Shown here in pieces: positions 11,422-30,250 of a stretch of DNA of 64,000 nucleotides. The translations under genes were made by a program, and so were the position numbers. The notes under the pieces were generated by a model, which was given only the letters and a program-made list of their open reading frames with translations, did not search any database and was not told the DNA's origin. Numbering within the stretch: the stretch's first letter is position 1; each line of letters begins with the position of its first letter. The stretch comes from a virus (lineage: Duplodnaviria; Heunggongvirae; Uroviricota; Caudoviricetes): the IMG/VR virus record IMGVR_UViG_3300014208_000025, positions 116,967 through 180,966 of that record. One strand, 5' to 3'.

Positions 11422-12621
11422 TTAGAAATTATTGAACAAACTCATGGGAATTCTATTCAATGCCCCTCCTAGATAAATATAATCGTTATCGTAAGATGAC
11501 CAACTTATTTGATTGGCTAATGGTTGAACGGCTAACACCAAGACTTTAGAAGCACGTTTCCACACCCCACCGACATAAATGTAATAGTAATCCACGTCAT
11601 ACGATATCCAACCTTCCTCTCCTGAATCGGAGGAATTCAGTGGGGCCGGCAAATGCCACTTGCTTAATGGCACCGTACCCGCAGGAATCAACTCTATGGT
11701 TGGTTGAAATACCACTGGAGGATTTGGAATCACCACATCTTTTTGAAGATTTGGATAATCTTGGCGTCTCCACTTCTCTTTGTTTGGGTCTAGGTCGTTG
11801 AACTTGAAGTCGGTAGATACCACTTCTTCACCCATGACTACTTTCTTTGGAGTAAACCATTTCTTTGTGGTCGGCTTACTACCATCCAAACCATAGTTTG
11901 TATCCGGTAAAAGATATCCATGAACCACCAAATCAAATTCCGTTTTCACCATGCGGTCTTGGTCAACTTGAAGTTCAATCGTGTGGGAAAAAGATTCAAT
12001 GTTGGTACGAAAACGGAAACCGCGAGCATCGCCCCAATAATCATCCGTTTCAAAGTTCATGCGTTCGACCAACGTATTCATCTGCTCCACATATTCCGTC
12101 CAGATGATGAAGTGATAAGTGAATACCATGTGGTCGGGTACCACAACATCATACACTTCATTGACTGGCACATTAAGACCCACTAAAACGTTGAACGGTG
12201 TGTAACGATTCTTTTCAGAAAACATTTTGATGACCGGATACTTCAAGTATCGGTTGAACATCATCATGGCTTGGTCTTTATCCGAATTCGTGCGTTGAAA
12301 GACGATGGCGGGGAGTTGGATTTTTCCGTTGTAATCGCGGAAATAGCCGTCCTTTTGAATGCTTTTCCATTTTTCGGGACTAGCGTAAAATGTTGGAACT
12401 TTGATGCGATTTCCTTCATCCACAACATTTAACTGAAATCGTTCCAACTGCTTCATGATAGCAGTGTCAACGTCAATAAGTTTTACTGTGAAATCTTTTT
12501 GGACATCAGTATCTCGTCGAGTATTTTCCGCACGATTAGCCACTACCTTCTTTTCGCTCAGAACGTTTGATTTCTGAACGACGTTCGGGACGGGGTTTAA
12601 GTTATTACCTTTCCAGGCCAT
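11422..12621 (-). CDS. hypothetical structural (baseplate/tail) protein
   Basis: Position in the tail module. No motif identified. Confidence 0.3.
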   Translation of the reverse strand: MAWKGNNLNPVPNVVQKSNVLSEKKVVANRAENTRRDTDVQKDFTVKLIDVDTAIMKQLERFQLNVVDEGNRIKVPTFYASPEKWKSIQKDGYFRDYNGKIQLPAIVFQRTNSDKDQAMMMFNRYLKYPVIKMFSEKNRYTPFNVLVGLNVPVNEVYDVVVPDHMVFTYHFIIWTEYVEQMNTLVERMNFETDDYWGDARGFRFRTNIESFSHTIELQVDQDRMVKTEFDLVVHGYLLPDTNYGLDGSKPTTKKWFTPKKVVMGEEVVSTDFKFNDLDPNKEKWRRQDYPNLQKDVVIPNPPVVFQPTIELIPAGTVPLSKWHLPAPLNSSDSGEEGWISYDVDYYYIYVGGVWKRASKVLVLAVQPLANQISWSSYDNDYIYLGGALNRIPMSLFNNF

Positions 12622-12625
12622 GTGA

Positions 12626-13099
12626 TTATCCTTGTCTTTCCACGAAACTCAATTTGGAGAGTCTTGAGTAATGTGTGTTCACAATAACGGAGTGTGATTT
12701 GTCTTCAATTCCGCCCAAGAATTGCATTTGAACGGTGTTGTCACATTCAAAATATTGTTCGTTAAAACGAATGATATCGCCGACTTCCGGATACAGATTC
12801 ACAAGTTTCAACATATTTTCACGAAACTTAAACACCACAGTTTGATTTCGGTCAGGACCAAATTGGTCATATGTTGTGTCAATGTCTGCTTTATCAATAA
12901 GGCAAGTTACTTCAACACCCGGATAGTAAAGTTTGCCAGATTCGGGAGACGACTCACCATAGACATTCGACTTCATTTCTGATGGCGCCATCTTGTAAAT
13001 CAATACAGATGTTTGAATGATGTCTCCCATCAATTCTCCGTTAAAACTGTTAACGAGTTTCATATCTCTGACCGAAAAATACCTGCCGAGCAATCCCAT
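12626..13099 (-). CDS. hypothetical protein
   Basis: Tightly packed ORF in the structural block. Confidence 0.3.
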   Translation of the reverse strand: MGLLGRYFSVRDMKLVNSFNGELMGDIIQTSVLIYKMAPSEMKSNVYGESSPESGKLYYPGVEVTCLIDKADIDTTYDQFGPDRNQTVVFKFRENMLKLVNLYPEVGDIIRFNEQYFECDNTVQMQFLGGIEDKSHSVIVNTHYSRLSKLSFVERQG

Positions 13100-13105
13100 A
13101 GGTTA

Positions 13106-13600
13106 TTACTTCTTTCCTTCGTTCAATCCCGACCAACCACGTCTTTTTATGTAATGTTGTAAAGCAATCCCAGCACTCTCAACGATTTGTTGCCATACGT
13201 GAATTGGGGGTGGTTCGTCGTCAGGCATATCAGCAATCATTTTCAGATAATCCAACACCGCATCTTTTTCCTCGCCGAATTTTGGCGATTGGTTCAACCC
13301 AACTTCGGCTACTGTTCCGTCATTCTTGACAAATTGTTCGTTCTCCGTGTCATCCCAATAACCAAACTTGTCAGCGATTTGAACGGCACATTGATAGGCC
13401 ACTTTTTGAGCCGTAGAAACATCCTTGATATAACCCAATCCAACCGATTCCACTTGATGATAGGAAATGGTCTTGGCTCCAGTTTCGTGGGCATTAGAAA
13501 ATACCTTTTTCATTCCTGAAACAACGAGTTCTTCTCCGTTAACGGATTCTTTAAGTAATCTAAACTGGTTGTTTTCTACATTTTCAAATAATTTTTTCAT
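13106..13600 (-). CDS. hypothetical protein
   Basis: ORF only. The sense-strand TATTTATA octamer lies 31-38 nt upstream of its ATG. Confidence 0.3.
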   Translation of the reverse strand: MKKLFENVENNQFRLLKESVNGEELVVSGMKKVFSNAHETGAKTISYHQVESVGLGYIKDVSTAQKVAYQCAVQIADKFGYWDDTENEQFVKNDGTVAEVGLNQSPKFGEEKDAVLDYLKMIADMPDDEPPPIHVWQQIVESAGIALQHYIKRRGWSGLNEGKK

Positions 13601-13621
13601 AAGTTGTTGATTATCAATAAT

Positions 13622-14833
13622 TTACCCGATATAAATAAAAAGAGGCACCCGTTTCAATGTATCTTGGAGATATTCAGCTTCTCTGCTACGATCTTCCATC
13701 TGCTGTTTTTTTCCGACTGCCTCTAGGGTTTCCCTTAACTGCGTGATTAAATCGGTTTTTTCCTGTTGTGCTTCATTTCTTAACTCCGCACCGTCTAAAG
13801 TTACTTCGCCTCCCGGAATTGGAATCGTTTGATACTTTTGACGAATCGCACCCAACAACTCTTTACAGAGCGAAAGAAAGTATTTACGAATCCATTGACG
13901 GCCAACCGCGTTGATGGTCGTGTAGGGAATGTTTTGGTAGGGGATGTTAGCATAATCAGATACATAACTGCCGGTATAATTGCTTCCGGATGGATTGGAA
14001 ACTACTGATGCACTATAACGGTCGTTAGTCAAGAAATAGTCAAAATACACGGGATAACCCCCCGAGGTTGGAATTGGAAATATTTTCAATTTGTTATTAG
14101 TCAACTCAAATGAATAAGCTGATTTACGAACCATATCGTTGAACTCAATGGCTTGACCACGGAGCAAATCTTCAAAGATTGGACACATCAAAAACTGAAC
14201 GGCCGGCGAATATGCTCCAAAACCCATTTCATTCATGACGTTGGAATAACTCATGCCTGTCATTGAAAATGGGTCATAAATACGGGCAAAGGCGGGGGTT
14301 CTTTCATGGAAAATCCTCATGACTTCCAGTTTATTGAAACTTTCGGAAACATCACCCCACAACGCTTGTAAATCGTAGGTCTGTTGACCCGCCTGCAATA
14401 TTACCTGCCCACGTTTCCACGTTACATTTCCACCAACACCTATTTCTGTGCCGTAACTCTTGGCAAGTTGAACGATGACATTCATTGGTGTTCCAACCAC
14501 GGCTTGACCCGACAAATTACCCAATTCTGATACTTTTTGACCCTGAAACACTTGAATGTAGTTTCGAATGTTCCATTGGTTGACTTGAGCACCATACTCG
14601 TTAACGGCTTCCTCAAAACAAGCGTAGAAGTTTCGGTCCACCAATTCAATATCTACTACTGGATATCCAAGTCTATATGCTGCCCACTTGGCCGAGGCTG
14701 GGGCTTCCAATTGAAAAACTGCGTCGGTGTCGTAAAACCCGAACGGGGTGCTGCCGGAAACGGCTGAACCGCTGCCGGGCCATCGAACGCGGTCTTGGTC
14801 GATTAGTGTAGTTGCGTTGGTTTGTTCGCTCAT
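13622..14833 (-). CDS. hypothetical structural protein
   Basis: ORF only. Confidence 0.3.
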   Translation of the reverse strand: MSEQTNATTLIDQDRVRWPGSGSAVSGSTPFGFYDTDAVFQLEAPASAKWAAYRLGYPVVDIELVDRNFYACFEEAVNEYGAQVNQWNIRNYIQVFQGQKVSELGNLSGQAVVGTPMNVIVQLAKSYGTEIGVGGNVTWKRGQVILQAGQQTYDLQALWGDVSESFNKLEVMRIFHERTPAFARIYDPFSMTGMSYSNVMNEMGFGAYSPAVQFLMCPIFEDLLRGQAIEFNDMVRKSAYSFELTNNKLKIFPIPTSGGYPVYFDYFLTNDRYSASVVSNPSGSNYTGSYVSDYANIPYQNIPYTTINAVGRQWIRKYFLSLCKELLGAIRQKYQTIPIPGGEVTLDGAELRNEAQQEKTDLITQLRETLEAVGKKQQMEDRSREAEYLQDTLKRVPLFIYIG

Positions 14834-14903
14834 AGGTCGTATCTCTTCAATAAATATAGAAACAACGGATGATTCTATCTCAAATCTCTCCTATTTATTA
14901 CAT

Positions 14904-15464
14904 ATGATTAGACTCATGGATATCATCAATGAAGATTTGGATATACCGACGCCGGCCCAACATCAACCAGCATCCAATACAATCATCAATTCCGATTTCC
15001 TAAAGTTCGTGATGAATGTGGAAAACGCTGAGTTAAAAGGTCGTGACCCCAAAACTAAAATTTGGCATCCACACTCGTCTCCAGAAGGAGGGTCTGAAAC
15101 GGTTGGATATGGACATAAGTTGAAAAACGGACCAAATGTTCAAAAACATACCAATCTTTCAGACAAAGACGTTGTAAAATTGTTAAGAGATGATTTAGTT
15201 GAAGCAAACAAAAAAGTTCATCAATATGTTGAAAAGGTTTACGGTATCAAAATTTTATTGAACCAAAAACAAGAAGAAATGTTAACCGAATTTGTTTTCA
15301 ATCTTGGTGGATTGGATAAATTTCCAAAATTCACAGAAGCCGTTTTGAAAAATGATATGCCTACAATGAGGAAGGAATACAAAAGATTTTATCGAGGTAA
15401 AGACCAAAAACCTATCGAATTAGAACGACGAAATAAGTTGTTCTATGACCGATTTTTGAAGTGA
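14904..15464 (+). CDS. lysozyme (GH24, T4 e / gp5-lysozyme-like)
   Basis: Glu...Asp...Thr catalytic triad followed by GYGH (NAELKGRDPKT...SETVGYGHKL), as in T4 lysozyme (TIGIGH). ATG at 14904 chosen because the longer listed ORF overlaps the convergent upstream gene. N-terminus MIRLMDIINE fits the leader consensus. Confidence 0.6.
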   Translation: MIRLMDIINEDLDIPTPAQHQPASNTIINSDFLKFVMNVENAELKGRDPKTKIWHPHSSPEGGSETVGYGHKLKNGPNVQKHTNLSDKDVVKLLRDDLVEANKKVHQYVEKVYGIKILLNQKQEEMLTEFVFNLGGLDKFPKFTEAVLKNDMPTMRKEYKRFYRGKDQKPIELERRNKLFYDRFLK

Positions 15465-15487
15465 CATTTTATAGGAAATGTGTTACA

Positions 15488-16930
15488 ATGATGTTTATGA
15501 CTGAAATCAAACAAAGAATCGTAGAAGGAATCAAAGAAAAATCTGCGGAAGACTTTATCCGTCAGACCATTAAAGGTACGGAATGGCAAGGTAAAGTTTT
15601 CGTTGCGGGTGGATATGTCCGAGATGAATTCCTTGGTAAAGACCCCAAAGACCTTGATTTGTTGGTAAACTCCCAAAACGGCGGCATCGAATTCGCCAAT
15701 TGGATTACCAAGAAAATTGGAAAATTCAAAGAAGGATCAAATCCCGTAACTTTTCCAAGGTTTGGCACTGCCAAGTTTAACCTTCTGGGAGTGATCCATA
15801 ATGGAATTGACCTTTCGGACATGGATATTGAGGCCGTAATGCCCCGCAAAGAACAATATACAGCAGGCTCCCGCAAGCCAGATGTATCCCAAGGGGAACT
15901 CAAAGATGACGTGGAACGTCGTGACTTCACTGTAAACAGCCTTTTGAAAGACCTTTCATCGGGTGAAATTCTTGATTTGACAGGCATGGGCAAGGATGAC
16001 ATCAAGGCCGGAATTGTCCGAACTCCGTTGAGTCCCGACAAGATTTTCACCGATGATCCACTCCGTCAGTTGCGAGCCGTTCGTTTCTCAGTCAAATACA
16101 ATTGGAAGTTGCCAATGTTCATGTTGAAGGGGTTGAAACGAAACGCTCCACAACTTAAGAATATTTCCAATGAACGTATCCGTGATGAGCTTGACAAAAT
16201 GTTGATGACGGGTTCCCCCGCCAAAGCTATCAAATTGATGAAAGTAGTCGGATTACTTCCATATGTTATTCCCGAACTCGTTCCAGCAATCAAGATGGTC
16301 CAGAATAAACATCATTCCGAAGATGTTTTTTCTCATACCTTAACAGTATTATCCAAAACTCAACCGGTTTTGATTCAAAGGTTGATGGGTTTGTTTCATG
16401 ATATCGGTAAGACGGTCACAAAATCAGTAACTCCAACAGGGGTACATTTTTATGACCACGAAGACGCGGGTTCAAAAATAGCCGAAAAAGTGATGACTCG
16501 CTTGAAATATCCAACGGAATTGATTGATGCGGTCAAATTGGGTGTGCGTAACCACATGCGTTTGAAATCCGCCAAGGATACCGGCGTGGAATTGTCCGAT
16601 AAGGCACTGCGTAAGTTTAAAATTGAAGTAGGCGACCAATTGGAAAACATTTTGAATGTTATCCATGCAGATAACTGTGCTCATTCAGATGCGTCTGCGA
16701 TGCCTAATCAGATTGCCAACATTCGTAAGCGTCTTGAAACACTGAATATGAATGTGGCCCACGGTAAACCAAAACTTCCCATTACCGGAAACGATTTACA
16801 GGCCATCGGTATCAAGCCCGGCCCAATCTATTCTGAAATTATGAAGTCTGTTACCGAATCGTGGTTTGAAAACCCGGCTATTTCTAAAGAACAGGCATTG
16901 AAAATTGCTAAACAAATTGCCAAAATATGA
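15488..16930 (+). CDS. cca: tRNA nucleotidyltransferase (CCA-adding enzyme), class II head domain plus HD domain
   Basis: GGYVRDEFLGKDPKDLDLLV head motif (G-G-x-V-R-D...D-x-D). HD-type region downstream (HDIGK...HMRLK). The listed ORF starts at a GTG at 15461. The ATG cluster at 15488-15497 is preferred. From 15497 the N-terminus is MTEIKQRIVE (leader-like). Confidence 0.8.
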   Translation: MMFMTEIKQRIVEGIKEKSAEDFIRQTIKGTEWQGKVFVAGGYVRDEFLGKDPKDLDLLVNSQNGGIEFANWITKKIGKFKEGSNPVTFPRFGTAKFNLLGVIHNGIDLSDMDIEAVMPRKEQYTAGSRKPDVSQGELKDDVERRDFTVNSLLKDLSSGEILDLTGMGKDDIKAGIVRTPLSPDKIFTDDPLRQLRAVRFSVKYNWKLPMFMLKGLKRNAPQLKNISNERIRDELDKMLMTGSPAKAIKLMKVVGLLPYVIPELVPAIKMVQNKHHSEDVFSHTLTVLSKTQPVLIQRLMGLFHDIGKTVTKSVTPTGVHFYDHEDAGSKIAEKVMTRLKYPTELIDAVKLGVRNHMRLKSAKDTGVELSDKALRKFKIEVGDQLENILNVIHADNCAHSDASAMPNQIANIRKRLETLNMNVAHGKPKLPITGNDLQAIGIKPGPIYSEIMKSVTESWFENPAISKEQALKIAKQIAKI

Positions 16931-18381
16931 TAAAACTAAAATCATTATTGGTAGAAAAAACTTTGTATCATGGAACGATATCCGATTTTGTTCCAAGTAT
17001 AAAGAAACATGGGCTTTTACCAACTGTCGGCGAATTTGTTAAACATGCGTATGCAGGTTCAGTTGATAATATCGATGCGGAAATTAATGAATACTTGAAG
17101 GATTTGGTGTTTGCGACGGACAAAAAACAATTGGATAAAGCCGTTACCGCAATCACGGCCCAAGTGGGAATCAAACTAAACAAAGATTTCCAAAATGTTA
17201 CGGATGAAGAATTCAAACAATACGGAGCGTTAGCAATCATAAAAGATGGTGATTCCGTAATGAGTCACTACTATCCGAAAGACGATGAAAATTATTATGG
17301 TCAACATCCTTTAACAGTTGAGCCGGGAGATTACTTTTCAGATGAGTATGTTAATGTCGATTACATTTTGACTAAGGACAAATTGATTTCTTTCTTAAGA
17401 CGACTTGGAAGCTGGCCTAGAAAATATGGACCGGATTATAATAAATTTCGTATCGAAGGAAAACTGGCTCCAGAGTCAATACAGGAAATCAAGAAGTATG
17501 ACATAAAGAAACATTACAACATTGATATGCGGCCAAACACCGTCGTTGTTGATTTGGTGAATTCAATTTTGAAGGACATCAAACCGTTGATTTATGAATT
17601 GGGGTTTCGTAATATTAAAATCAACTATGTTACCCACGATACCGAGGCCTTTGCCAGATACAACGGAATTATTGACTCCACCGGCGATCCCATTATTACC
17701 ATGTCCACAAAAATCGTGTATGGTTGGGTAAAGAAATATGGTCACAAGTTAGACCGTGAAATAGAACGAGTAATCGTTCATGAATTGAATCATGCCTATC
17801 TTGAATTGTGTGGATTGGATATCAATAGACAATACAAAGACAGGCAACGAATAGAGCCAATAGTAGAAGACGCTGCTCAAGAATTTGTTGAAGACCGCAA
17901 CGTGCAGAAAGTTAAAGAAACCTTGGATGAGTTCGTTGAAGATTACAGTTTCCATACTGGACACATTGCCGAAACAACGGAATGTCCACGTTGCAATGGT
18001 TGGAAAGTGATTTATGTTCGAGCGGGCATTCCAAATGTTGTTGCCAAATGTCCTGTCTGTGTTGATAAACCCAAGACCATTAAAGTGTATCGTGGGGTAT
18101 CAGAATACAACAAAAAGTATGGCAACTTCTGGACGACTGATAAGGAATGGGCACGCCAGTTTACCCAAGCAGGGTTAGACAAGGAAATCAAACAACGCAC
18201 GATTGATACTTCCGTTATTATGAAACGGGAGAATGTGCCGTTGCCACGAGCCTGTAGTGACAAGGGTTTTGACCAAGCTATAAAGGATGCTGAGTTTGGT
18301 AAATTTGATGCGTTTTGGGTTAATGAAGGTCAAGGCGAACCTCCATCTATTTATGTAATGAACCTTGCGGTGTTAAAATGA
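16927..18381 (+). CDS. multidomain protein: N-terminal PARP/Tpt1-like ADP-ribosyltransferase-fold motifs, HExxH motif, C-terminal CxxC...CxxC zinc ribbon
   Basis: TLYHGTISDFVPSIKKHGLLP closely resembles the KptA/Tpt1 segment FLYHGTASRFLDEILKQGLKP. DLVFATD follows about 37 aa later (compare PARP GIYFAD). Also VIVHELNHAYLEL (HExxH) and CPRCNGW...CPVCVD. Leader MIKLKSLLVE. ATGA overlap with the cca stop. Confidence 0.5.
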   Translation: MIKLKSLLVEKTLYHGTISDFVPSIKKHGLLPTVGEFVKHAYAGSVDNIDAEINEYLKDLVFATDKKQLDKAVTAITAQVGIKLNKDFQNVTDEEFKQYGALAIIKDGDSVMSHYYPKDDENYYGQHPLTVEPGDYFSDEYVNVDYILTKDKLISFLRRLGSWPRKYGPDYNKFRIEGKLAPESIQEIKKYDIKKHYNIDMRPNTVVVDLVNSILKDIKPLIYELGFRNIKINYVTHDTEAFARYNGIIDSTGDPIITMSTKIVYGWVKKYGHKLDREIERVIVHELNHAYLELCGLDINRQYKDRQRIEPIVEDAAQEFVEDRNVQKVKETLDEFVEDYSFHTGHIAETTECPRCNGWKVIYVRAGIPNVVAKCPVCVDKPKTIKVYRGVSEYNKKYGNFWTTDKEWARQFTQAGLDKEIKQRTIDTSVIMKRENVPLPRACSDKGFDQAIKDAEFGKFDAFWVNEGQGEPPSIYVMNLAVLK

Positions 18382-19715
18382 TTAGGTTGCTGAGAATATT
18401 GCTTGAAGGACGAGTTGAGGATTTCAAAAAGAAATACTCCGCGTTACCGCCTGATGTCCAAGCGGAAATCCTAAAAAACGACCCAAGTCCCAACAACAAA
18501 TATTTGGATTGGATGGGCAAGATTGCGTCAATCGAACCAAGTTTGAAGTTAGATACTTTGATTGGTGACGTTGAAGAGTTTGACAAATATCAAGTCATGT
18601 TAGGTGACATCAATCGCTTCAAATCACACAACGATTTGAAACAAGCGTTAATGTCTCGCACCAAAAGCAAGAAACAAACTACCAAGGAAGGTGCTCAAGT
18701 TATCATTGATAATCCCGATTTTTTGGTGGTCGTTCCCAAAACCCAAGACAGTTGTGCTTACTACGGCAACAACACAAAATGGTGCATTGTCAATCAGGAA
18801 TCCTACTGGAACAGTTACTTCTACGAAAACACCATCATCATTCTTTTGGATAGACGCACACATGAAAAGTATGCTATTGTTGGCCGGGCTGACGGCGTTT
18901 TCGTCGTCTATGACCGAAATGACAGTAGAATTGATTACAATTTCTTCATTCGGGATGAAGACGAAGAAGGTGCGTGGCCGGAATACGTTCAAGAAGCAAT
19001 TGAAGAAGCTATGTCAAATGATGACATTGAAGGCCGTAAAGATGAATACATAGGTAAAATGGTGGATACGTTCATTGAAGATAAGGGAGCGGACAAATTG
19101 TGGGAAAACTATTTAGACCGAGTTCATCGGGAATACAAATTGGATGGTGAACCATCAATGGAAGTTTTCAAAAACATCATAAACTCACACGGAATAACCG
19201 ATGAAAAACTTTCCGAATTGTCTGTATCATTATTGTATTACAGCTTACAACAAAACGGAGTCTCTGAGGATGATTTGGGTGAAGTAAATGCCACATCAGA
19301 CATAGACCGTGCGTTAAGAGATATGGGAAAACTGGAAAAAGATGTCGATGGTGGTACGCCTCTTGAATATGCGGTGGGTGATTATGTTCGGTCATTTCGT
19401 GGAGTCGCGGGGCCTCTAGCGGTGATTGAGGATGCGGTTAGTGAACCTATTTTTGACGAGATTTACTATAAGGGAACGATTGATGAAGATTTGTTTGATG
19501 CCATCACCAAATATAACGCAAGATTGAATTCCCCACAACAAATGAGTTTGAAAGGTATGGATAAAGGAAAAGAAACGGTTCATATTAACAACATACAAGA
19601 TGTCATCTATGTTTTCAAGAATACCGGATACGAAGACTGGGCCAATTATTTGTCATCCGTGACCGGTTTAAAAGAAGTGATGAAAACTTATCAACCAAAG
19701 GCTAGACTGTTATGA
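18378..19715 (+). CDS. hypothetical protein with leader-like N-terminus
   Basis: MIRLLRILLE N-terminus. ATGA overlap with the upstream stop. No motif identified in the body. Confidence 0.4.
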   Translation: MIRLLRILLEGRVEDFKKKYSALPPDVQAEILKNDPSPNNKYLDWMGKIASIEPSLKLDTLIGDVEEFDKYQVMLGDINRFKSHNDLKQALMSRTKSKKQTTKEGAQVIIDNPDFLVVVPKTQDSCAYYGNNTKWCIVNQESYWNSYFYENTIIILLDRRTHEKYAIVGRADGVFVVYDRNDSRIDYNFFIRDEDEEGAWPEYVQEAIEEAMSNDDIEGRKDEYIGKMVDTFIEDKGADKLWENYLDRVHREYKLDGEPSMEVFKNIINSHGITDEKLSELSVSLLYYSLQQNGVSEDDLGEVNATSDIDRALRDMGKLEKDVDGGTPLEYAVGDYVRSFRGVAGPLAVIEDAVSEPIFDEIYYKGTIDEDLFDAITKYNARLNSPQQMSLKGMDKGKETVHINNIQDVIYVFKNTGYEDWANYLSSVTGLKEVMKTYQPKARLL

Positions 19716-19816
19716 TTCGTTTAACTCCCATGTTGACCGAAGCCAAGGTCAAGAATCTCTATTGGAATGTGATTCCTCGTCAGATTTGGATAAAGAAACC
19801 TTTAATGAACAGATAA
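19712..19816 (+). CDS. leader-only mini-ORF (34 aa)
   Basis: MIRLTPMLTEAKV... starts in an ATGA overlap with the stop of 18378-19715. Found by hand translation. May be a remnant or a small peptide. Confidence 0.25.
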   Translation: MIRLTPMLTEAKVKNLYWNVIPRQIWIKKPLMNR

Positions 19817-19838
19817 AAAAGTATATTTATGTACCAAT

Positions 19839-20375
19839 ATGATAAATTTAAGTAAAATTCTAAGAGAGGACAGGTCTGAAACTACAGATCGGGGATGTTT
19901 GATGGCAATGGTTCTTGAACCCCAACGTACTGCTATTTTGAACTTTGGTAACAAACTAATTCGTGAAGAGGACTTGTATATCGTAGATGATGAATTCGGT
20001 CGTGAAAAAGAAACCCACGTCACCATTCTCTATGGTTTTGTACCTGATTTGTCTAAAAGCCAAGTCGTTCAAATCATCCGAGACGTGAAACCATTTACCA
20101 TCACTTTAACCGGCGTGGACACATTCAAAAACGAGAAAGAGGGGTTTGATGTAGTGAAGTTTTCCATTGAAAGTCCGATTCTAAGACAACTTAACGCAGA
20201 CGCTCAAAAGTTTCCCAATCAAAATGACTTTCCGAATTATTCGCCTCATATGACGATTGCGTATGTCAAACCAAATACATTCAAAGAAACTCGTAAAGGT
20301 CTAAAAATTGAAATTCCAATTAGTCAAATTTGTTACTCGTCTTCCCAACATCAAAAAATGTATGTCAATCTATGA
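19839..20375 (+). CDS. 2H phosphoesterase (LigT / cyclic phosphodiesterase / Acb1-like fold)
   Basis: Two H-x-T-x motifs with typical spacing: ETHVTILYGF and SPHMTIAYVK. Leader-like MINLSKILRE. Confidence 0.6.
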   Translation: MINLSKILREDRSETTDRGCLMAMVLEPQRTAILNFGNKLIREEDLYIVDDEFGREKETHVTILYGFVPDLSKSQVVQIIRDVKPFTITLTGVDTFKNEKEGFDVVKFSIESPILRQLNADAQKFPNQNDFPNYSPHMTIAYVKPNTFKETRKGLKIEIPISQICYSSSQHQKMYVNL

Positions 20376-20962
20376 TTAAGCTCAAAGAAGTATTAGAAGA
20401 TTTAGGAAATACATTTCAGATGTATCATGGAGGAAAACGTTGGTCACGCCTTCCTACAGAATTGTTAGGAAATTCTCAAGGTCGTTATGAGGCCGGTGTA
20501 GGAATATATTTCACCAATGACTACAATACTGCCCGTCGTTACGCTAAAGGGTCTAGGGTTGTTCATCGTGTTGAAATTGACAAAAACTTCAAAGAAATTG
20601 AAAATGTTAAACTTCCATTAATAGAAGTCGTTGATTTTGTAAAGAATCTTAACGGTCTAAAACGAAGATCGGAAATTATTGATTCATTAAAAAATAATGC
20701 ATCTCGCATGAATACAGATTTTGTATCAGCAAATATTCTTAATAATTTAATTGTGAACTATGAAGCTGGGGCAGGCAAGGTAGGCATTAAAATATCAAAC
20801 TATCTCGTAAGTAAAGGTGTAGATGCCAAATTTGAATCCCAAAGCGGAGACGAGTTTTGGTTAATTGTGTTTAACCCAAACATCATAAAAAAAGTAGATG
20901 TTGTTAACCCTGCTACAGTAAACAGTGATTTCGCATTTACCCTTCCCAATCCATTCCTATGA
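20372..20962 (+). CDS. PARP-like (H-Y-E class) ADP-ribosyltransferase-fold protein
   Basis: QMYHGGKRW followed 28 aa later by GIYFTNDY (compare PARP HGS ... GIYFAD). Leader MIKLKEVLED. ATGA overlap with the stop of the 2H gene. Confidence 0.5.
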   Translation: MIKLKEVLEDLGNTFQMYHGGKRWSRLPTELLGNSQGRYEAGVGIYFTNDYNTARRYAKGSRVVHRVEIDKNFKEIENVKLPLIEVVDFVKNLNGLKRRSEIIDSLKNNASRMNTDFVSANILNNLIVNYEAGAGKVGIKISNYLVSKGVDAKFESQSGDEFWLIVFNPNIIKKVDVVNPATVNSDFAFTLPNPFL

Positions 20963-21036
20963 TTAAACTCAAGAGTCTCATATCAGAATATGTTTATGAT
21001 AACGTGGATTTTGTTATCATAAGATCATATTTATAG
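20959..21036 (+). CDS. leader-only mini-ORF (25 aa)
   Basis: MIKLKSLISEYVYDNVDFVIIRSYL* starts in an ATGA overlap with the stop of 20372-20962. Stop TAG at 21034-21036. Confidence 0.25.
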   Translation: MIKLKSLISEYVYDNVDFVIIRSYL

Positions 21037-21043
21037 ACACAAC

Positions 21044-22006
21044 ATGAAACTCAAGACCATTCTTTTACTCGGTGAATCTTCCGGCTTCGGCATCGCCGGC
21101 GGTCCTTTGGGTGGTTCATTGACTTCTCATGATACTAAACTACGAGCCTATCCTAATAGTATGGATGACGTTGAAGGTTGGAATGGAATTGTTGAGGGTG
21201 ATGGTTGGTTTGTACATAGGGAATCAAATAATTGGGATACTAAACTTTCCGGAGCAAGCGTGTATATCACCGAGGGAGAACCACACAAGTATTGGATGCG
21301 TATCAAAACCCACGGCTTACGCAAGCCAAACGACACGAATGAATCCTACCGCCAACGTATCAATAAACACTCAGACAAGGTTGCCCGAGCATGGATGACT
21401 GCTGCGAAGAAACTCCACAACAATCCCGAAATCAACGAAGTCGGTAACGAGATTCAGATGACGTGGAAAGAAGCTTTCAAGTTAGCATTGGAGAGTGCCA
21501 AGGTCAAACCCTTCATCGCTGAATATGGAGAACGTCAGATAAATCCGACAAAACGTGCCTTAGACCGTGTAAGTCCGCCTATATCAGACCCTATTAATTT
21601 TACCCCAAGATTGGAAGAACAAGCGAATCCTCAAATTGGTTGGTCTGCCGTCGTGTTGGATGAACAATCCAAGAATCGTTTATTGACTGAATTCGGCTCC
21701 AAAATACCTGATGGGTTCGAAAAGATTGCTCATCACATGACGATTACAATGGGCGGATTACCACCCGAGAAGAAGGGTGACGTTGGTAAAACGGTGACTC
21801 TATTGGCCACTCACATAGGAATTTCTGAAAAGGCCATTGCGGTTAAAGTTTCAGGCTATTTCACAACCAATAAAAATCCACACGTTACTTTAGCCATTGA
21901 TAGAAATGGTGGGGCCAATCCAGTTGATTCCAATAAAATCACTAATTGGGAAACGTTGCCGCAACCAATTTCTCTATCGGGGAAAGTAACTGAGTATTCT
22001 CGTTAA
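21044..22006 (+). CDS. two-domain protein with C-terminal 2H phosphoesterase domain
   Basis: AHHMTITMGG and NPHVTLAID (two H-x-T-x motifs) in the C-terminal ~120 aa. Leader-like MKLKTILLLGE. Confidence 0.5.
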   Translation: MKLKTILLLGESSGFGIAGGPLGGSLTSHDTKLRAYPNSMDDVEGWNGIVEGDGWFVHRESNNWDTKLSGASVYITEGEPHKYWMRIKTHGLRKPNDTNESYRQRINKHSDKVARAWMTAAKKLHNNPEINEVGNEIQMTWKEAFKLALESAKVKPFIAEYGERQINPTKRALDRVSPPISDPINFTPRLEEQANPQIGWSAVVLDEQSKNRLLTEFGSKIPDGFEKIAHHMTITMGGLPPEKKGDVGKTVTLLATHIGISEKAIAVKVSGYFTTNKNPHVTLAIDRNGGANPVDSNKITNWETLPQPISLSGKVTEYSR

Positions 22007-24269: not shown

Positions 24270-24566
24270 CTATCCATGTATGAGCAAAAATATTTCCGTA
24301 AATCCAATTGACTTGTAAAATTCGATCAAATCTTTCTTTTCTAATTTTTTGCCGGGCATATTAGCTAGTGGTTGAGCATGTAACCAACAATGTTTAGGTA
24401 AAAATCGAGCTAATTTTTTGGCAAACCCTTTACCTCTATATTTTGGATAGACTACAAAAGATTCCACTTTAGGGATTCCCCCAAAAAGATTAGACGGGGC
24501 AACATCAAAATAACCGTAAAATTTTTTAATTTCGGATTCTAAGATAAGATGCTTTAATTTAATCAT
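24270..24566 (-). CDS. mini GNAT-like protein (acetyltransferase motifs A and B only) with MIKLK leader
   Basis: VVYPKYRGKGFAKKLARFL (GNAT motif A Q/RxxGxG/A) and IEFYKSIGF (motif B). Leader MIKLKHLILE. ATGA overlap with the upstream gene. Confidence 0.35.
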   Translation of the reverse strand: MIKLKHLILESEIKKFYGYFDVAPSNLFGGIPKVESFVVYPKYRGKGFAKKLARFLPKHCWLHAQPLANMPGKKLEKKDLIEFYKSIGFTEIFLLIHG

Positions 24567-24856
24567 ACTTTTCCAAGACGTTTTTTAACATCTGACAATT
24601 TGTATCGTCCTCTAGGAAATTTAAACAATTCTTCTGACGTGGGCATCTCATACCCCATTTTATTCATATGTTCTGGATTACTAGAAAAATGATTTTGTCC
24701 ACTAGAAATGTCATCTATTTGAACGTAATTAAACTGTGGAAACGATTCGTCTTTTTGTATTGTGACCATTAATACATCATCATTCAAATATGGTAAACGT
24801 CGTTTAACTTCGGAGTCTTTTATTGTTCCTTCAATGAGATGTTTAAGCTTAATCAT
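24563..24856 (-). CDS. hypothetical protein with MIKLK leader (possible N-terminal half of a split GNAT)
   Basis: MIKLKHLIEG leader. Directly precedes and overlaps the mini-GNAT ORF. Confidence 0.3.
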   Translation of the reverse strand: MIKLKHLIEGTIKDSEVKRRLPYLNDDVLMVTIQKDESFPQFNYVQIDDISSGQNHFSSNPEHMNKMGYEMPTSEELFKFPRGRYKLSDVKKRLGKV

Positions 24857-24875: not shown

Positions 24876-25640
24876 TTATATCCTATTCGTTAACTTTCTT
24901 CTTTCATTGAGAATGGTGGCTTTAGATGTTCCGTATTTTTCTTGTAATTGAGAAATTGTGAATTGTTCTGATAAAATGTCTTTATGAAGTTCCGGTTTCA
25001 AATTTTTCAAATGTGCCTTTCTTTCGGAAATTCGTTTTTTGACTTCCTCTGACATAGGACCTCGTTTTGTTCCTTTCATCTTGTTATCATAAGAGTAATT
25101 CATTTTTCTATTTCTCAATATCATGTTTCGATTTTCAAATTTTTCCGTTCCTTTTCTTTTTCCGTTTCGTTGTATAAACCAATCCAATGTATAACGGCCA
25201 ATAGATTTTTGTTTTTGAAGTTGAATGGATGATTCACTATGTTTTTTTCCAAACATGGGGTTATTTTCCCCAGCACTAATCCCACTCATTTTTTCTATAA
25301 AAGCATCTCTATTTGGATTGTGGGTAATGTTATCGCCTCCACATGCTTTAGGACAAATATTGTAACCAATACCCTGAATGTATGGTTTGAATGTGTCTAA
25401 ATAGTATTGTTCTCTTTCAAGAAGAAGTTCTTTTTTTGACTCGGTTTCTTCTATAATTGACATTGAAAACTTATCGCCGCCATAGAAATTCCAAGAATTC
25501 TGTAATTTAGGATTACAGTGTTGATTTCTAATAAGATTTCCTTTGTGTTCTATTTCCCATCGTTTATCTATATCTTCCGAACTTCCAATATAGAATTTTC
25601 CGGTGACTTCGTTTGTGATTTTGTATATTCCACTTTTCAT
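24876..25640 (-). CDS. GIY-YIG homing endonuclease with NUMOD3-like repeats
   Basis: GIYKITNEVTGKFYIGSS...R...E...N. GENNPMFGKKHSE. Confidence 0.8.
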   Translation of the reverse strand: MKSGIYKITNEVTGKFYIGSSEDIDKRWEIEHKGNLIRNQHCNPKLQNSWNFYGGDKFSMSIIEETESKKELLLEREQYYLDTFKPYIQGIGYNICPKACGGDNITHNPNRDAFIEKMSGISAGENNPMFGKKHSESSIQLQKQKSIGRYTLDWFIQRNGKRKGTEKFENRNMILRNRKMNYSYDNKMKGTKRGPMSEEVKKRISERKAHLKNLKPELHKDILSEQFTISQLQEKYGTSKATILNERRKLTNRI

Positions 25641-25769: not shown

Positions 25770-27551
25770 TTATACAGTGTCCAAGTCTGCGACGAGGATT
25801 TTCCCGTAAAACTCGGGCCGCACGATCTTCTTCGCGTAACGGGTCATTACACCGCGTCTTGGGGTGAAATTCACTGGATCATACACCAAAGGTGTTTGAA
25901 CGAGTGGGATGTATGGAGCATAGACAGCTCCCGTTTCGAGGAAGTTATTTCCACGGAAGCCCAACAGAATGACGTTATCCGTCATATATGGGTTCTTATA
26001 GACTTGGAAGCGACTTGCGAAGCTACCAACACGGCTTACGCCCATGGCATACTTGGCTTGATCGCCATCTGTGTTCACAACGAATCCCGGAATGGATTCT
26101 AAAATCGTTGATACGTCTGGGGAGACGACCATGAAGTTAGCACCACCACGGAGGGTCAATTGGTGAATCTTGTTGGATACCTTTTGAATCTTGTTACCAA
26201 GAGTCTGATACCATGTTGCCTTGGTGTAATAGCCACCTGTTCCAGCAACCGTTTGGGTCACGACGTTGTAACCACCTGAGCCGTTAGGCACGATTTCGGT
26301 GTTGAGCTTGGCGCTCCAACGTTCCGTTGTTAATGCTGGGGCATTGGTAATCAACATGTCGAGAATTTCGAGGTCAATTTCCATTGAAACATATTCAGAC
26401 AACAGGGCCGTCAATTCGGCTTCTGCATCAATACTATGATAAGCATTCAAGTCTTGAGCGAGTTCTGGAGTCCAGACTGCCTTCAACTTACGAGTCTTAG
26501 CGACGATTGGTTCGCTTTTGAGTTCCAAGTTTACTTCTGGAATACCAATATCTTTGTTAAGACCGGTATCAGGAGCGTTGGTTGACTTACCTGTTGGATT
26601 GAAGAACGAGACACCACTGTTTCCAGTGTTATCTTCGAAGTCACCACGGTTACTATCCGTTGGTTGAACGGAGTAGATAACAGAACCAGTCAAGGAGCCG
26701 GTTGGTTGAACTGGAGCGGAACCAGAAGCTACGAAAGTTACTTCGCCGGCCGTGGTCAATTTGGTGAATGCTGGGTAATATTCACACACACCACCAACAT
26801 TCAATTCACCTGCTGCGCCGCCTGGTGTTACCGGCATAAATGAACGAACTGCGTTCGCGTCAAATACGTTACCATTAACCAACGACATGGCTCGGAAATT
26901 GTTTGTGGTAATGGCAAACAATTGACCGGCGGCCCATGATGCTGAAATGGAATTCAACAATTTGTCAGCGGAACCAGAACGTGCAGCCTGCACATAATAG
27001 TTGGTCAACCAATTAATGTCTTCCTGAGTAGCGGCTACGCTAGTAAAGGAACACGTTACGATTTTGTCGTTGGCAGTATAGCCATACTTACCAACGCCAT
27101 ACAGACCACCGATTGGCTTATCTGTTGAACCTGATTTGACGCCTGTTCCACCGAATAGTGATGAATAGTTACCGGTTGCATCAGCTGGACGACCACCTTG
27201 GGCTGAACCATACTTGAAATCCAAGTAAAATACGAGGCCCGATGGTAGATTCATTGGCTGGACGGAGACGAACTCCTTGGCAGCAAATTCTGCGAATACA
27301 CGCCGAACGAGTGGGAGAGCTACGCCTGCCCATTGTTCGGAGTTTGCGGAAGTACCAGTAGCAGTAGCTTCTTCAATTAGCTGTTTAGCTTGATTTTCGA
27401 GCAACACTGACATGTTGGACTTCTCGATATCACTTTTGATACCTTCGAGCAAGCCGGTCTTATCCCACTTGGTCACTAGACCACGGGTTTCCGTCATCAA
27501 GCGAGCTTGAGGATTCATTGTGTTTGTTAACAACGATTTAATGTTTTCCAT
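25770..27551 (-). CDS. major capsid protein (T4 gp23-like)
   Basis: QPMNLPSGLVFYLDFKY (T4 QPMNSPTGQVF). RKLKAVWTPELAQDLNAYHSIDAEAEL (T4 RQLKAAYSIELAQDLRAVHGMDADAEL). C-terminal YAPYIPL...TRY. N-terminal propeptide-like segment with LLEG / VLLEN. Confidence 0.9.
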   Translation of the reverse strand: MENIKSLLTNTMNPQARLMTETRGLVTKWDKTGLLEGIKSDIEKSNMSVLLENQAKQLIEEATATGTSANSEQWAGVALPLVRRVFAEFAAKEFVSVQPMNLPSGLVFYLDFKYGSAQGGRPADATGNYSSLFGGTGVKSGSTDKPIGGLYGVGKYGYTANDKIVTCSFTSVAATQEDINWLTNYYVQAARSGSADKLLNSISASWAAGQLFAITTNNFRAMSLVNGNVFDANAVRSFMPVTPGGAAGELNVGGVCEYYPAFTKLTTAGEVTFVASGSAPVQPTGSLTGSVIYSVQPTDSNRGDFEDNTGNSGVSFFNPTGKSTNAPDTGLNKDIGIPEVNLELKSEPIVAKTRKLKAVWTPELAQDLNAYHSIDAEAELTALLSEYVSMEIDLEILDMLITNAPALTTERWSAKLNTEIVPNGSGGYNVVTQTVAGTGGYYTKATWYQTLGNKIQKVSNKIHQLTLRGGANFMVVSPDVSTILESIPGFVVNTDGDQAKYAMGVSRVGSFASRFQVYKNPYMTDNVILLGFRGNNFLETGAVYAPYIPLVQTPLVYDPVNFTPRRGVMTRYAKKIVRPEFYGKILVADLDTV

Positions 27552-27588: not shown

Positions 27589-29052
27589 TTACTTCTTCGG
27601 TGCGTTTGGGATTCCAGCGAGTTTCTTGAATCTATCCGCCATCGCGTTACTCTCAGTAATAATCTGAGCAGGTTTCGTAGATGCTACTGTCTTAGATGCG
27701 AGTCCTTCGGTAATCTGAGTAACACTTCTCTTAATCAATGGCTTGGTAGCCACTGGCTTTGAGTTGATACTCTTACCAAAATTTAGCGACTCCGCCAACA
27801 AGGCGTAGGCCAATTTCACTTCACGAACGCTCTTGGTCAGGTCAAATGATTCAACGATTTTCATTCTGTATGAATCGTCAAGAACCCCTGCGAACTCCTT
27901 AAACAACTTGTTCGTGTAAAGCAGTTTGGCGTTGAGCAGATTAACCTCATTAATTTGTCCACGGAGGAAACGGATAGCGTCGTAAGATTCCTTGAGGGCA
28001 GTCTTATACTTGGCTACTTCTGAAAGGCCGCCGACAGAGCCGGCGCCAATGTTTCCTTTACCGGAAATATTGTGATTCTTACCCGTAAGTTGTTTCTTAC
28101 TGGCATCTTGTGGTGCGGCTGGATAACCCTTGACTCCGCCTGATTTGTCCTGGCCGTCAACGTTCTTTGGAACGCCGTTTTCAACAGCTTCATCGACTTT
28201 TTCTTCCTTGTCGTCGTCATCCTTCTCACCTTTTTCGCCCTTCTTTGCGAGCCACGGCGGTAGTTTTCCTTCCTTGACGGATTCTTCTTCCTCTTCAGCC
28301 TCTTCATTTAATGAAGCAAGCAATTCTTCGAGGTTGATTTCTTCATCGCCTTCGGTTGGGGGAACTTCACCAACTGGCTCGGTTCCGTCCAATGCTGGGT
28401 CAAGTGGGGCTGGTGCGGCACTCGGAACTGTTCCGGCTGCACATGCTGGGTCACAAACTGGTGCTGGAGCCGGTGCGGCTCCCATTTCATCACCATCAGG
28501 CTCACCGACCGGTGCGGCAGGTGGTAATTGAGCGGCTGGATCGCCTTCAACAGGAGGCAATTCTGCAGCAGGTTGAGGTTCACCCTCTTCTTCGCCCGAT
28601 ACTTCTTGTTCCAGTTCCTTGATGATTTCATCCAAATCTTCAGATGTTAAACCGGCTTCGGCAACAACTTCTTCTTGTTCCTCAGTTTCGGTTACTATAC
28701 TCTGTTTTGCAGCTGGGGCTTTTGAGCCGGCAGCTCCTTCCGAACCTCCGACTGCAATGGTTTTAAAATCTTTCTTTGCAGATGAACCTTTATGTGGTTC
28801 CCCTTTGGAAACGGCTTTTGTCGTTGGTCCTTTGGCTTCTCCACCCTTACCGGATACTTGGTTAGGAGCTTCTACTTCGGATACCATTTCTTCTTGTTCT
28901 TCTTCAGAATCCTCTTTCAACTTCTCGGCAAACATTGCTTCAAAACGAGGAGCGAAGGCTTCTTCAAGCGATGCTTTGGCATTGGCGAGAGCAGTAGCTC
29001 TTACTGCCTTTGCGTCGGCGATGGCTTCTTTTAGCAATTCACTGTTAATCAT
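27589..29052 (-). CDS. prohead scaffold/core protein (gp22-like, acidic, low complexity)
   Basis: Immediately upstream of the gp23-like gene. Highly acidic, A/E/P/G-rich, predicted helical N- and C-termini. Confidence 0.5.
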   Translation of the reverse strand: MINSELLKEAIADAKAVRATALANAKASLEEAFAPRFEAMFAEKLKEDSEEEQEEMVSEVEAPNQVSGKGGEAKGPTTKAVSKGEPHKGSSAKKDFKTIAVGGSEGAAGSKAPAAKQSIVTETEEQEEVVAEAGLTSEDLDEIIKELEQEVSGEEEGEPQPAAELPPVEGDPAAQLPPAAPVGEPDGDEMGAAPAPAPVCDPACAAGTVPSAAPAPLDPALDGTEPVGEVPPTEGDEEINLEELLASLNEEAEEEEESVKEGKLPPWLAKKGEKGEKDDDDKEEKVDEAVENGVPKNVDGQDKSGGVKGYPAAPQDASKKQLTGKNHNISGKGNIGAGSVGGLSEVAKYKTALKESYDAIRFLRGQINEVNLLNAKLLYTNKLFKEFAGVLDDSYRMKIVESFDLTKSVREVKLAYALLAESLNFGKSINSKPVATKPLIKRSVTQITEGLASKTVASTKPAQIITESNAMADRFKKLAGIPNAPKK

Positions 29053-29951: not shown

Positions 29952-30250
29952 TAAAATTGAAGGAAATACTTCATCGCCTCCACGCTGAGAACGAACAAGG
30001 TCTAACTGAAGTTGATAGTTGGAAAATCACGGATGCCGACTATTTGACAGACATGGGGTTTACCATTGATGGTATGTATCATTTCGGGTTGAAGAAACCT
30101 GAGATAAAGATTGCTCACAAAAAGGGTCAGGGCTTCATCGTTGAAGACATGACCAAAAACAGAAAACAAGTTTTTCCCAAGTTTACCGAACTGATGGAAT
30201 ACTTTTCAAAGTATCAACAACGTTGGGAACGGGAACCATATTCAGAATGA
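29948..30250 (+). CDS. hypothetical protein with MIKLK leader
   Basis: MIKLKEILHR. ATGA overlap with the upstream stop. Confidence 0.35.
   Translation: MIKLKEILHRLHAENEQGLTEVDSWKITDADYLTDMGFTIDGMYHFGLKKPEIKIAHKKGQGFIVEDMTKNRKQVFPKFTELMEYFSKYQQRWEREPYSE

Follow-up and report, generated by a model that had tools for sequence, protein, structure and literature searches.

A shared N-terminal decapeptide marks a variable cassette of probable head-packaged enzymes in a giant T4-like phage

Introduction

We analyzed 64,000 nucleotides (the window) of the virus record IMGVR_UViG_3300014208_000025, positions 116,967 to 180,966, which are part of a 351.7-kb contig of a T4-like giant phage (a far-T4 relative of ~350 kb). 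At 14904-22006 of the window lies a block of nine plus-strand open reading frames (ORFs), each of which starts with a version of one ten-residue peptide with the consensus M-I-K/R-L-K-x-(L/I)-(L/I)-x-E, in the following termed the tag. A preliminary description of this region had proposed a counter-defence cassette acting on RNA ends and NAD. The idea of an NAD and RNA-end toolkit fits broadly, but the decapeptide that unites the genes had been missed. The shared decapeptide, together with a T4-type prohead protease encoded in the window, moves the reading from a cytoplasmic operon to a set of proteins that is probably delivered by the virion. By analogy to phage T4, the block is thus probably a hypervariable cassette of effector enzymes that are packaged into the head, processed by the protease and injected into the host.

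Results

Nine tightly coupled genes begin with a common decapeptide

The eight coupled plus-strand ORFs at 15461-22006 noted in the preliminary description were readily recovered. ATGA stop/start overlaps are present at five junctions (16927, 18378, 19712, 20372 and 20959), and the non-overlapping junctions measure 22 nt (19816 to 19839) and 7 nt (21036 to 21044), so that every gap is below 25 nt. The true first gene of the block lies one gene 5' of this interval and encodes a GH24 lysozyme. For the following gene, encoding a CCA-type enzyme, a start at ATG 15488, as in the public gene call of the identical contig, is more likely than GTG 15461; with this start a 23-nt gap after the lysozyme gene replaces the GTGA overlap. 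Tight coupling of the ATGA type is common in phage operons and unremarkable alone. The block is composed as follows (ART, ADP-ribosyltransferase):

14904-15464, plus strand: GH24 lysozyme, 186 aa, tag MIRLMDIINE (Pfam Phage_lysozyme, 3.8e-11)
15488-16930, plus strand: ORF2, class II CCA-type tRNA nucleotidyltransferase with HD domain, 480 aa (Pfam, PHROG)
16927-18381, plus strand: ORF3, 484 aa, tag MIKLKSLLVE; ART lobe, zincin and module C
18378-19715, plus strand: ORF4, 445 aa, tag MIRLLRILLE; weak matches
19712-19816, plus strand: 34-aa ORF, tag MIRLTPMLTE; remnant of a deleted cassette gene
19839-20375, plus strand: ORF5, 178 aa, tag MINLSKILRE; 2H phosphoesterase of LigT/Acb1 type
20372-20962, plus strand: ORF6, 196 aa, tag MIKLKEVLE; ART-PolyVal-like protein with H-Y-E residues, in the variable slot of the cassette
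20959-21036, plus strand: 25-aa ORF, tag MIKLKSLISE; probably a remnant
21044-22006, plus strand: ORF7, 320 aa, tag MKLKTILLLGE; N-domain and 2H domain of CNPase/Trl1-CPD type (CPD, cyclic phosphodiesterase)

The tag heads all nine ORFs, with a weaker version in the CCA enzyme. When a strict tag pattern was applied to the 930 in-frame Met positions, it matched 14, 12 of them real gene starts. Homologues supplied 47 distinct tags for comparison. Of these, 43 have Leu at position 4, all 47 have Leu, Ile or Val at position 7, 41 have Leu or Ile at position 8 and 33 have Glu at position 10; in 42 a [LIVMF]-x-E motif ends at position 9 or 10. The tag is conserved as a peptide and not as DNA. All six Leu codons are used at position 4, and the DNA upstream of the tags is not conserved. 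A DNA repeat, a promoter and a ribosome-binding site were rejected as explanations on these grounds, and a signal peptide was rejected on length and charge. In a structure model of ORF3 residues 2-8 of the tag are helical, and the peptide is predicted to be amphipathic. A literature search for MIKLK in connection with phage returned nothing relevant, and no description of the tag was found there.

At least six further tagged ORFs are located outside the block (starts at 24856 and 24566, minus; 29948, plus; 41129 and 48851, minus; 52506, plus), which brings the number of tagged ORFs to at least 15 in 64 kb:

within 24270-24856, minus strand: 97-aa ORF, MIKLKHLIE, adjoining the major capsid gene
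within 24270-24856, minus strand: 98-aa mini-GNAT, MIKLKHLILE, adjoining the major capsid gene (PF13508 on record; phrog_1249 acetyltransferase, 8.5e-4)
29948-30250, plus strand: 100-aa ORF, MIKLKEILHR, no Glu at position 9-10, homologue in the related contig L002
40017-41129, minus strand: 370-aa protein, MIKLKELLNVTE, directly upstream of the protease gene, no family match
47871-48851, minus strand: 326-aa protein, MIHLKPLLKE, adjoining the large terminase gene (phrog_11974, function unassigned, 2.6e-17)
52506-53009, plus strand: 167-aa protein, MIKLKTIVKE, no assigned function

The tag matches the register of the T4 capsid targeting signal

In T4 the first ten residues of the internal protein IPIII, MKTYQEFIAE, suffice for loading into the prohead core, and this capsid targeting signal (CTS) is the only feature common to the very diverse internal proteins (PMC9026906, PMC8442874, PMC3012670). 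Targeting depends on residues 4 and 7 of the CTS and processing on residues 8 and 10, and the protease gp21 cuts after L/I-X-E (PMC9026906). The tag resembles this peptide: its hydrophobic positions 4, 7 and 8 and its Glu at position 10 are in register with MKTYQEFIAE, and it ends in L/I-x-E. As with IPI, IPII, IPIII and Alt of T4, an N-terminal peptide of about ten residues is common to otherwise unrelated proteins. The T4-type head genes are likewise encoded in the window, including a T4-type large terminase and the following:

13622-14833, divergent from the cassette: gp13 neck protein
25770-27551: Gp23 capsid protein
39403-40020, minus strand: T4 gp21-type prohead core serine protease (PF03420 Peptidase_S77, 1.5e-25; phrog_207 head maturation protease, 3.2e-50)
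43064-46099, minus strand: gp20 portal protein (Portal_T4, 5e-67), 1011 aa with an intein

The capsid protein shares ~50% identity with its counterparts in Flavobacterium phage immuto and Microcystis phage Mel-JY01 and ~28-30% with those in T-even phages. The 370-aa tagged protein sits between the Portal_T4 gene and the protease gene, the slot that is taken in T4 by the prohead-core genes 67 and 68. The gp21-related proteases of phiKZ and SPN3US remove propeptides after Glu (PMC9026906). Since these more distant relatives also cut after Glu, a preference for Glu at P1 is a reasonable inference for the gp21-type protease of this phage. The cleavage motif of phiKZ, S/A/G-x-E, differs from the (L/I)-x-E found here.

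On the coding strand within 45 nt upstream of gene starts the heptamer TATTTAT occurs 16 times in the window, against 0.9 expected. It lies 5-37 nt upstream of 15 gene starts, and the reverse ATAAATA is not comparably enriched. The element precedes the lysozyme gene, ORF5, ORF7, the gp13 neck gene and other genes, and is also found inside the end of ORF3, before ORF4; examples are 14892 (plus), 14856 (minus), 19824 (plus), 21028 (plus), 24869 (minus), 25653 (minus), 43031 (minus) and 58493 (minus). TATTTAT is a candidate promoter element of the phage. It would fit expression of the cassette together with virion genes, and is not proof of late timing. We noticed that TATTTATA is the reverse complement of the T4 late promoter TATAAATA. 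Scans of the cassette for sigma-70 promoters and intrinsic terminators did not exceed the shuffled expectation.

By analogy with the T4 CTS, the amphipathic propeptide of about ten residues at the start of each product would dock the protein onto the scaffolding core during prohead assembly. The gp21-type protease would then cut after the Glu of the terminal (L/I)-x-E, and the freed enzyme would remain in the head until it is ejected into the host with the DNA. ORF3 would be cut additionally at E187, and perhaps at E349, separating the ART lobe from the zincin protease and the latter from the third module. In the host, the lysozyme may help in crossing the cell wall, the ART-like proteins may modify host targets using NAD+, and both 2H proteins and the CCA/HD enzyme may heal RNA 2',3'-cyclic-phosphate ends and the 3' ends of tRNA or break down cyclic nucleotides that serve as alarm signals. 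We infer the targeting, cleavage, packaging and ejection steps as well as all of these enzymatic substrates.

Cassette content varies while the tag is retained

The cassette was found in three related contigs at the same place, divergent from gp13 and with the CCA gene first. Among them its content varies: additional tagged genes are present, as are a GNAT and a GH9 protein, and the ORF6 slot is occupied by a different gene. The tag is found on nearly all cassette members of the three contigs. Hypervariability between relatives is also a property of the internal protein locus of T4. In contig L005 the cassette contains an untagged 744-aa protein with CelD_N and GH9 glycoside hydrolase domains (12603-14837, plus strand), which is odd for a cassette of head cargo and may be a tail-associated depolymerase. 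At the DNA level, the only match of the cassette to GenBank phages was the CCA gene (66% to a 735-kb uncultured phage).

Of the eight ORFs in the interval 15461-22006, two are mini-ORFs of 34 and 25 aa. The first 29 residues of the 34-aa ORF align with the beginning of a tagged gene of 287 aa, intact in the relative L003 (59% identity, E 7e-6), which identifies the ORF, on sequence similarity, as the 5' stump of that gene. The 25-aa ORF has no homologue in the compared relatives and is probably a remnant.

Related capsid proteins are encoded by at least 594 stretches or contigs in IMG/VR. The tag was surveyed in the 80 best loci by capsid protein (62-83% identity, 1.08 Mb), which contained 111 tag matches, 56 of them exactly MIKLK, distributed over 59 loci. 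In the window and these loci together, counted non-redundantly, the tag heads at least 59 unrelated protein clusters. Their Pfam content comprises 2H, GNAT, ART-PolyVal, lysozyme, NUDIX and R2K ATP-grasp, and most clusters have no family.

In sets of homologues the tag precedes whichever module stands first. Module A of ORF3 is fused in relatives to a GH24 lysozyme (P0009), a GNAT, a bona fide ART-PolyVal domain, a NUDIX domain or the CCA enzyme, the last in a 761-aa protein (P0019) with the order tag, module A, CCA enzyme. A tagged protein of L002 consists of a lysozyme fused to a GNAT, and proteins of the ORF5 and ORF7 types are fused in P0072 and P0100. Conversely, another giant relative encodes the two domains of ORF7 in separate genes. 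Just before an internal module A, several fusions keep K-x-(L/I)-x-E.

ORF3 combines an ADP-ribosyltransferase lobe with a zincin and a third module

ORF3 is divided into the following parts:

residues 11-175 (nt 16957-17451): module A, ART lobe
residues 188-349 (nt 17488-17973): module B, zincin metallopeptidase, HELNH at 285
between modules B and C: linker with CxxC...CxxC
residues 383-484 (nt 18073-18378): module C, YRG...E, no known family

Module A is an ART lobe with an HGT motif, as in the NAD-binding lobe of Tpt1, and an invariant Glu in the motif VEPGDYY; the closest solved fold is indeed the NAD lobe of Tpt1. To this extent the preliminary description, which had matched the N-terminus of ORF3 to that lobe, was right. 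The KptA string quoted there was not a computed match. Computation gave a single signal at the sequence level, a profile match of marginal significance (E ~0.006) that falls on the HGT region of Tpt1 chains. Neither ORF3 (at E <= 1) nor any other cassette protein matched PF01885. Furthermore, ORF3 has no counterpart of the ~90-residue N-terminal RNA-binding lobe of Tpt1, which carries most of the Arg-His-Arg-Arg catalytic tetrad: LYHGT of ORF3 is located at residues 13-17, straight after the tag, and the aligned motif starts at ~89-117 in Tpt1 chains. An identity of ORF3 with Tpt1 was rejected on these grounds, the likeness being limited to the ART lobe. A true Tpt1 in the relative P0017 was rejected as well; its PF01885 match reached 24.8 bits (cut-off 26) over a 30-residue HGT stretch that overlaps a PARP match.

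Module B carries HExxH on a zincin-like fold of the YbeY/Wss1/SprT/ArdC kind, and module C has no detectable family. The (L/I)-x-E sites of ORF3 at positions 10, 187 and 349 all lie within low-confidence linkers of the structure model. The linker between modules A and B (ESIQE/IKKYDIKKHY) aligns with the end of the tag in stand-alone B-C proteins (MIKLKSLVE/IKKYDINKHY). ORF3 may thus be cut into three pieces in its linkers. A search for ORF3 relatives in IMG/VR by means of peptide patterns found none.

The other cassette enzymes

The CCA-adding enzyme proposed in the preliminary description was confirmed by profile matches (PF01743, 2.7e-19; PF12627, 1.4e-15; PF01966, HD, 3.3e-7; PF13735, 4.7e-6; phrog_2244, 2e-56). 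PF01743, PF12627 and PF13735 exceed their cut-offs and cover the Pol-beta head and the RNA-binding body, and the motifs GGYVRD at 41, DLD at 55 and RRDF at 144 are present. These sequence matches confirm ORF2 as a CCA-type nucleotidyltransferase, a class within which the models do not separate CCA-, A- and CC-adding enzymes or poly(A) polymerases. An N-terminal extension of ~37 aa contains the weaker tag-like peptide MTEIKQRIVE, followed by Gly, which is kept in relatives as MNDIKQKLVEG or MIDIKQRIVEG. No tRNA genes were detected in the 64-kb window by ARAGORN, despite the gene for a CCA-adding enzyme.

Both 2H phosphoesterases of the preliminary description were likewise confirmed. ORF5 matched PF13563 (2.8e-12, 47.4 bits) and the Acb1 model PF23474 (2e-8, 34.5 bits, cut-off 27), both above the curated cut-offs, as well as PF02834 (1.6e-5) and phrog_755 (3.9e-14), and contains the 2H motifs HVT at 60 and HMT at 137. 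The best sequence match in the PDB is Acb1 (9q2g), only at E 0.049. Sequence profiles thus confirm ORF5 as a 2H phosphoesterase, and they do not distinguish the LigT-like from the Acb1 type.

ORF7 consists of the tag, a disordered Gly/Ser linker, an N-domain (residues 45-170, nt 21176-21553) and a 2H domain (residues 197-320, nt 21632-22003) with HMT at 231 and HVT at 280. In the AF2 (AlphaFold2) model (mean confidence score, pLDDT, 83.4) the N-domain is well predicted and the start is disordered. Foldseek matched the model to the CNPase catalytic domain (E 1e-4, prob 1.0), and the top 49 matches all belong to the CNPase/RICH family. The modeled fold thereby confirms the C-domain as a member of the CNPase/Trl1-CPD branch of 2H proteins. 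Five homologues have PF08302, the CPD domain of tRNA ligase, on record and ten are fused to AAA_33; ORF7 itself has no kinase domain. The fusion of this 2H type to AAA_33 polynucleotide-kinase-like domains in relatives is a genuine RNA-end-healing signature. We noticed that kinase-CPD proteins (AAA_33 and 2H) from other contigs (P0102, P0104, P0107-P0112) start with MKDKIKQILRE or MKNTKQKIKEILRE, each followed by Gly; tags related to the decapeptide may exist in other phage groups. The N-domain of ORF7 stands alone in many relatives.

ORF6 had been described as a PARP-like protein with HGG...GIYFT, and the conserved H-Y-E residues support an ART, although the match to PF18760 (ART-PolyVal; 1.2e-5, 26.6 bits, model positions 4-135 of 140) stays below the cut-off of 31.2. 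The same model was matched at E <= 1e-3 by 9 of 36 ORF6 relatives. In the alignment of 36 family sequences H19, G20, G42 and G44 are invariant and Y46, T48 and E161 are at least 90% conserved, corresponding to an invariant HGG, GxGIYxT and a conserved Glu (ExW). The family comprises 491 relatives, some of which are domains within proteins of 1754-4167 aa. A profile search against PDB sequences gave no match, no counterpart was found in L002, L003 or L005, and homology to module A of ORF3 or to the bona fide ART-PolyVal domain of P0016 was not detectable by hhalign or BLASTP. From its sequence motifs, ORF6 is likely an H-Y-E ADP-ribosyltransferase of ART-PolyVal-like type.

ORF4 gave weak matches only (PcfJ, 0.038; phrog_17056, 1.3e-9; phrog_28193, 5e-9), and none of its 96 homologues has a Pfam domain on record. 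Family and fold searches yielded no function for ORF4 or for the N-domain of ORF7.

Alternative explanations

The cassette could instead be a tRNA-repair operon expressed in the cytoplasm after infection, with an N-terminus that has no role in targeting: a 2H protein would open 2',3'-cyclic phosphate ends, a Tpt1-like protein would use NAD+ to remove the 2'-phosphate, the second 2H protein would hydrolyze ADP-ribose-1'',2''-cyclic phosphate (Appr>p) and the CCA enzyme would rebuild 3' ends. The cassette shares with the Tpt1/KptA and 2H CPDase repair pathway (which in yeast and plants includes the healing arm of Trl1) and with Pnkp-Rnl1 of T4 the CNPase/Trl1-CPD-type 2H of ORF7, whose relatives are fused to kinase-like domains, the Tpt1-like lobe of module A and the CCA/HD enzyme that heads the coupled genes. 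An RlaP nucleotidyltransferase and a NADAR protein are also encoded in the window (33040-35677), and a KptA-2H-ligase repair logic has been described in jumbo phages (PMC9503650). However, the specific Tpt1 and CPDase pathway fails on the absence of PF01885 and the RNA-binding lobe from ORF3 and of any ligase or kinase from the cassette. Module A is fused to a zincin; its partners in relatives, lysozyme, GNAT and NUDIX, have no place in repair. Neither the location of the cassette among head and neck genes nor the presence of one decapeptide with a protease site on a lysozyme, an H-Y-E ART, unassigned proteins and more than 50 unrelated families is explained by repair. We therefore consider a repair operon unlikely; the RNA-repair idea can survive as a description of how some of the cargo acts, and fails for the cassette as a whole.

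The N-terminus might also serve expression or recombination, either as an A/T-rich, unstructured 5' coding ramp that enhances the initiation of translation in a host with weak Shine-Dalgarno use or as a conserved joint for gene swapping. The tagged genes are indeed tightly coupled and lack an obvious Shine-Dalgarno sequence, the codons ATG ATT AAA are A/T-rich, and gene replacement as well as 5' remnants consisting of the tag occur at tag boundaries. What is conserved is nevertheless the amino acid sequence, with free choice among the Leu codons at position 4, tolerance of G/C codons and Glu fixed at position 10, and the extensive synonymous variation leaves little DNA identity for a joint. 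Moreover, the highly expressed major capsid and tail genes carry no tag, and K-x-(L/I)-x-E persists at internal domain junctions, where translation initiation is irrelevant. A device of this kind is quite unlikely. We regard as more improbable still that the tag directs proteins to another destination, such as the membrane or envelope, the tail or baseplate, or a shared oligomeric complex. The predicted amphipathic helix and the lysozyme, a cargo that acts outside the cytoplasm, would suit such a role, but the peptide is too short and too charged for a signal peptide or membrane anchor and is directly followed by Glu. Its register and terminal motif match specifically the T4 CTS and the gp21 site, and one tagged protein is encoded inside the portal-protease gene cluster.

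Several observations weigh against head packaging. Packaging and cleavage are proposed entirely by analogy, and (L/I)-x-E is a short, common motif that occurs about once per 100 aa in proteins of the window. The CCA enzyme is only weakly tag-like, with Arg at position 7, and the ORF at 29948 has a tag start without Glu. In L005 the 744-aa GH9 protein and a 404-aa protein of the cassette are untagged. The nearest cultured phages by capsid protein, immuto and Mel-JY01, encode the protease and have almost no MIKLK tags in the 50 kb around their head genes; the tag is thus clade-specific. Finally, the internal proteins of T4 are small and basic, whereas the enzymes here reach 484 aa and those of relatives 700 aa; large size does not, however, prevent the packaging of T4 Alt (682 aa) or of CTS-beta-galactosidase fusions.

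Further features of the window

Head-cluster proteins without a family match at 38211-39397, 41194-43000 and 27589-29052 (all minus strand) have the tag-like N-termini MKETQLKILVKAILRE, MQIRLQQLIRE, MKLSQLKTLVKNVIKE and MINSELLKE. In the proteins at 27589-29052 and 42104-43000 (L/I)-x-E reaches up to 4 per 100 aa, as expected of scaffold or core proteins that are cut repeatedly. The portal intein carries HNH_3 and NUMOD3 homing-endonuclease domains (PF14890, 1.3e-11), and free-standing GIY-YIG/NUMOD3 homing-endonuclease-like genes are found amid the head genes at 24876-25640 (minus), 36343-37176 (plus), 30223-30867 (plus) and 51801-52487 (minus). The head-gene region also includes a gene of the IMPDH/GMP-reductase family (7.7e-56; 37173-38156, minus) and one for an SPFH/Band_7 protein with the lipoprotein-like N-terminus MKKLITTLFACVTVLAITGC (31541-32443, minus). 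An untagged cluster at 33040-35677 (minus) encodes an RlaP 'RNA repair pathway' nucleotidyltransferase (PF10127, 2.6e-11), DUF5662 (3.7e-23) and NADAR (8e-33); these may be separate cytoplasmic genes for RNA repair or ADP-ribose processing. At 5367-7400 (minus) two paralogous ORFs lie side by side (333 and 341 aa); each starts with MANSQ, and they are probably duplicated tail-fibre-like genes.

Discussion

The principle of a CTS processed by gp21 and the idea of packaged ART and 2H effectors are already known. What is new is that a large set of separate enzyme genes in giant far-T4 phages, changeable in content and including a CCA-adding enzyme, carries a distinct tag found across the clade. 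We know of no precedent for a virion-delivered CCA-adding enzyme. The cassette shares with T4, whose Alt is a head-packaged ART, the ADP-ribosyltransferase class of putative cargo. It differs from T4 in the sequence of the tag (MIKLKxLLxE), in a putative cargo that forms a large enzyme set (CCA, 2H, zincin, GNAT, NUDIX, lysozyme) and in its arrangement as one coupled operon beside the neck gene, with further tagged ORFs elsewhere.

Packaged ART, 2H, NUDIX and GNAT effectors have been predicted from context, and the repertoire of the polyvalent proteins (ART-PolyVal, zincin MPTase, GNAT, 2H, NUDIX and peptidoglycan hydrolase) is that of the present cassette (PMC5512222, PMC9503650). Like those proteins, the cassette lies beside head morphogenesis genes and its domains are freely fused and split, domains of the ORF6 family being found in the very large proteins mentioned above. 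In contrast to the giant polypeptides or MuF and portal fusions of that system, the domains are mostly encoded here by separate genes with a short tag each, and the delivery signal would be a CTS-like decapeptide with a protease site. The ejection proteins of phiKZ and SPN3US and the Dar proteins of P1 similarly place many different proteins in a large head, with a role as anti-defence cargo; they belong to other phage lineages and have no common decapeptide tag, and the Dar proteins are incorporated hierarchically with no known short tag. ORF5 is comparable to the anti-CBASS protein Acb1, whose profile it passes and which is its best sequence match of solved structure, but it scores higher on PF13563, is tagged, and is fused to the ORF7 type in relatives. 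As regards the repair pathways, lysozyme, zincin and H-Y-E ART are tagged here alike with the putative repair enzymes.

Tentatively, a large clade of uncultured, giant far-T4 phages may load its heads via its own decapeptide MIKLKxLLxE, which the gp21-type protease would take off, with a changeable enzyme kit, made beforehand and injected along with the DNA for counter-defence and RNA-end repair in the first minute of infection. The kit might comprise a CCA-adding/HD enzyme, 2H proteins of CNPase and LigT/Acb1 type, ART domains, a zincin, GNATs and NUDIX. Repair of tRNA ends and hydrolysis of cyclic nucleotides or 2',3'-cyclic phosphates would then possibly start at DNA entry. If the tag is a capsid targeting signal, it provides a sequence rule by which the proteins injected by an entire clade of giant phages from the environment, with hundreds of genomes, could be listed. 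Most tagged proteins have no known family and would in that case be a pre-sorted source of candidate anti-defence effectors. The tag might also become a tool for loading foreign proteins into such capsids. The T4 CTS principle would extend from a few small internal proteins to large enzymatic cargo, and the domains of polyvalent proteins would be deliverable as separate tagged genes or as protease-cut polyproteins.

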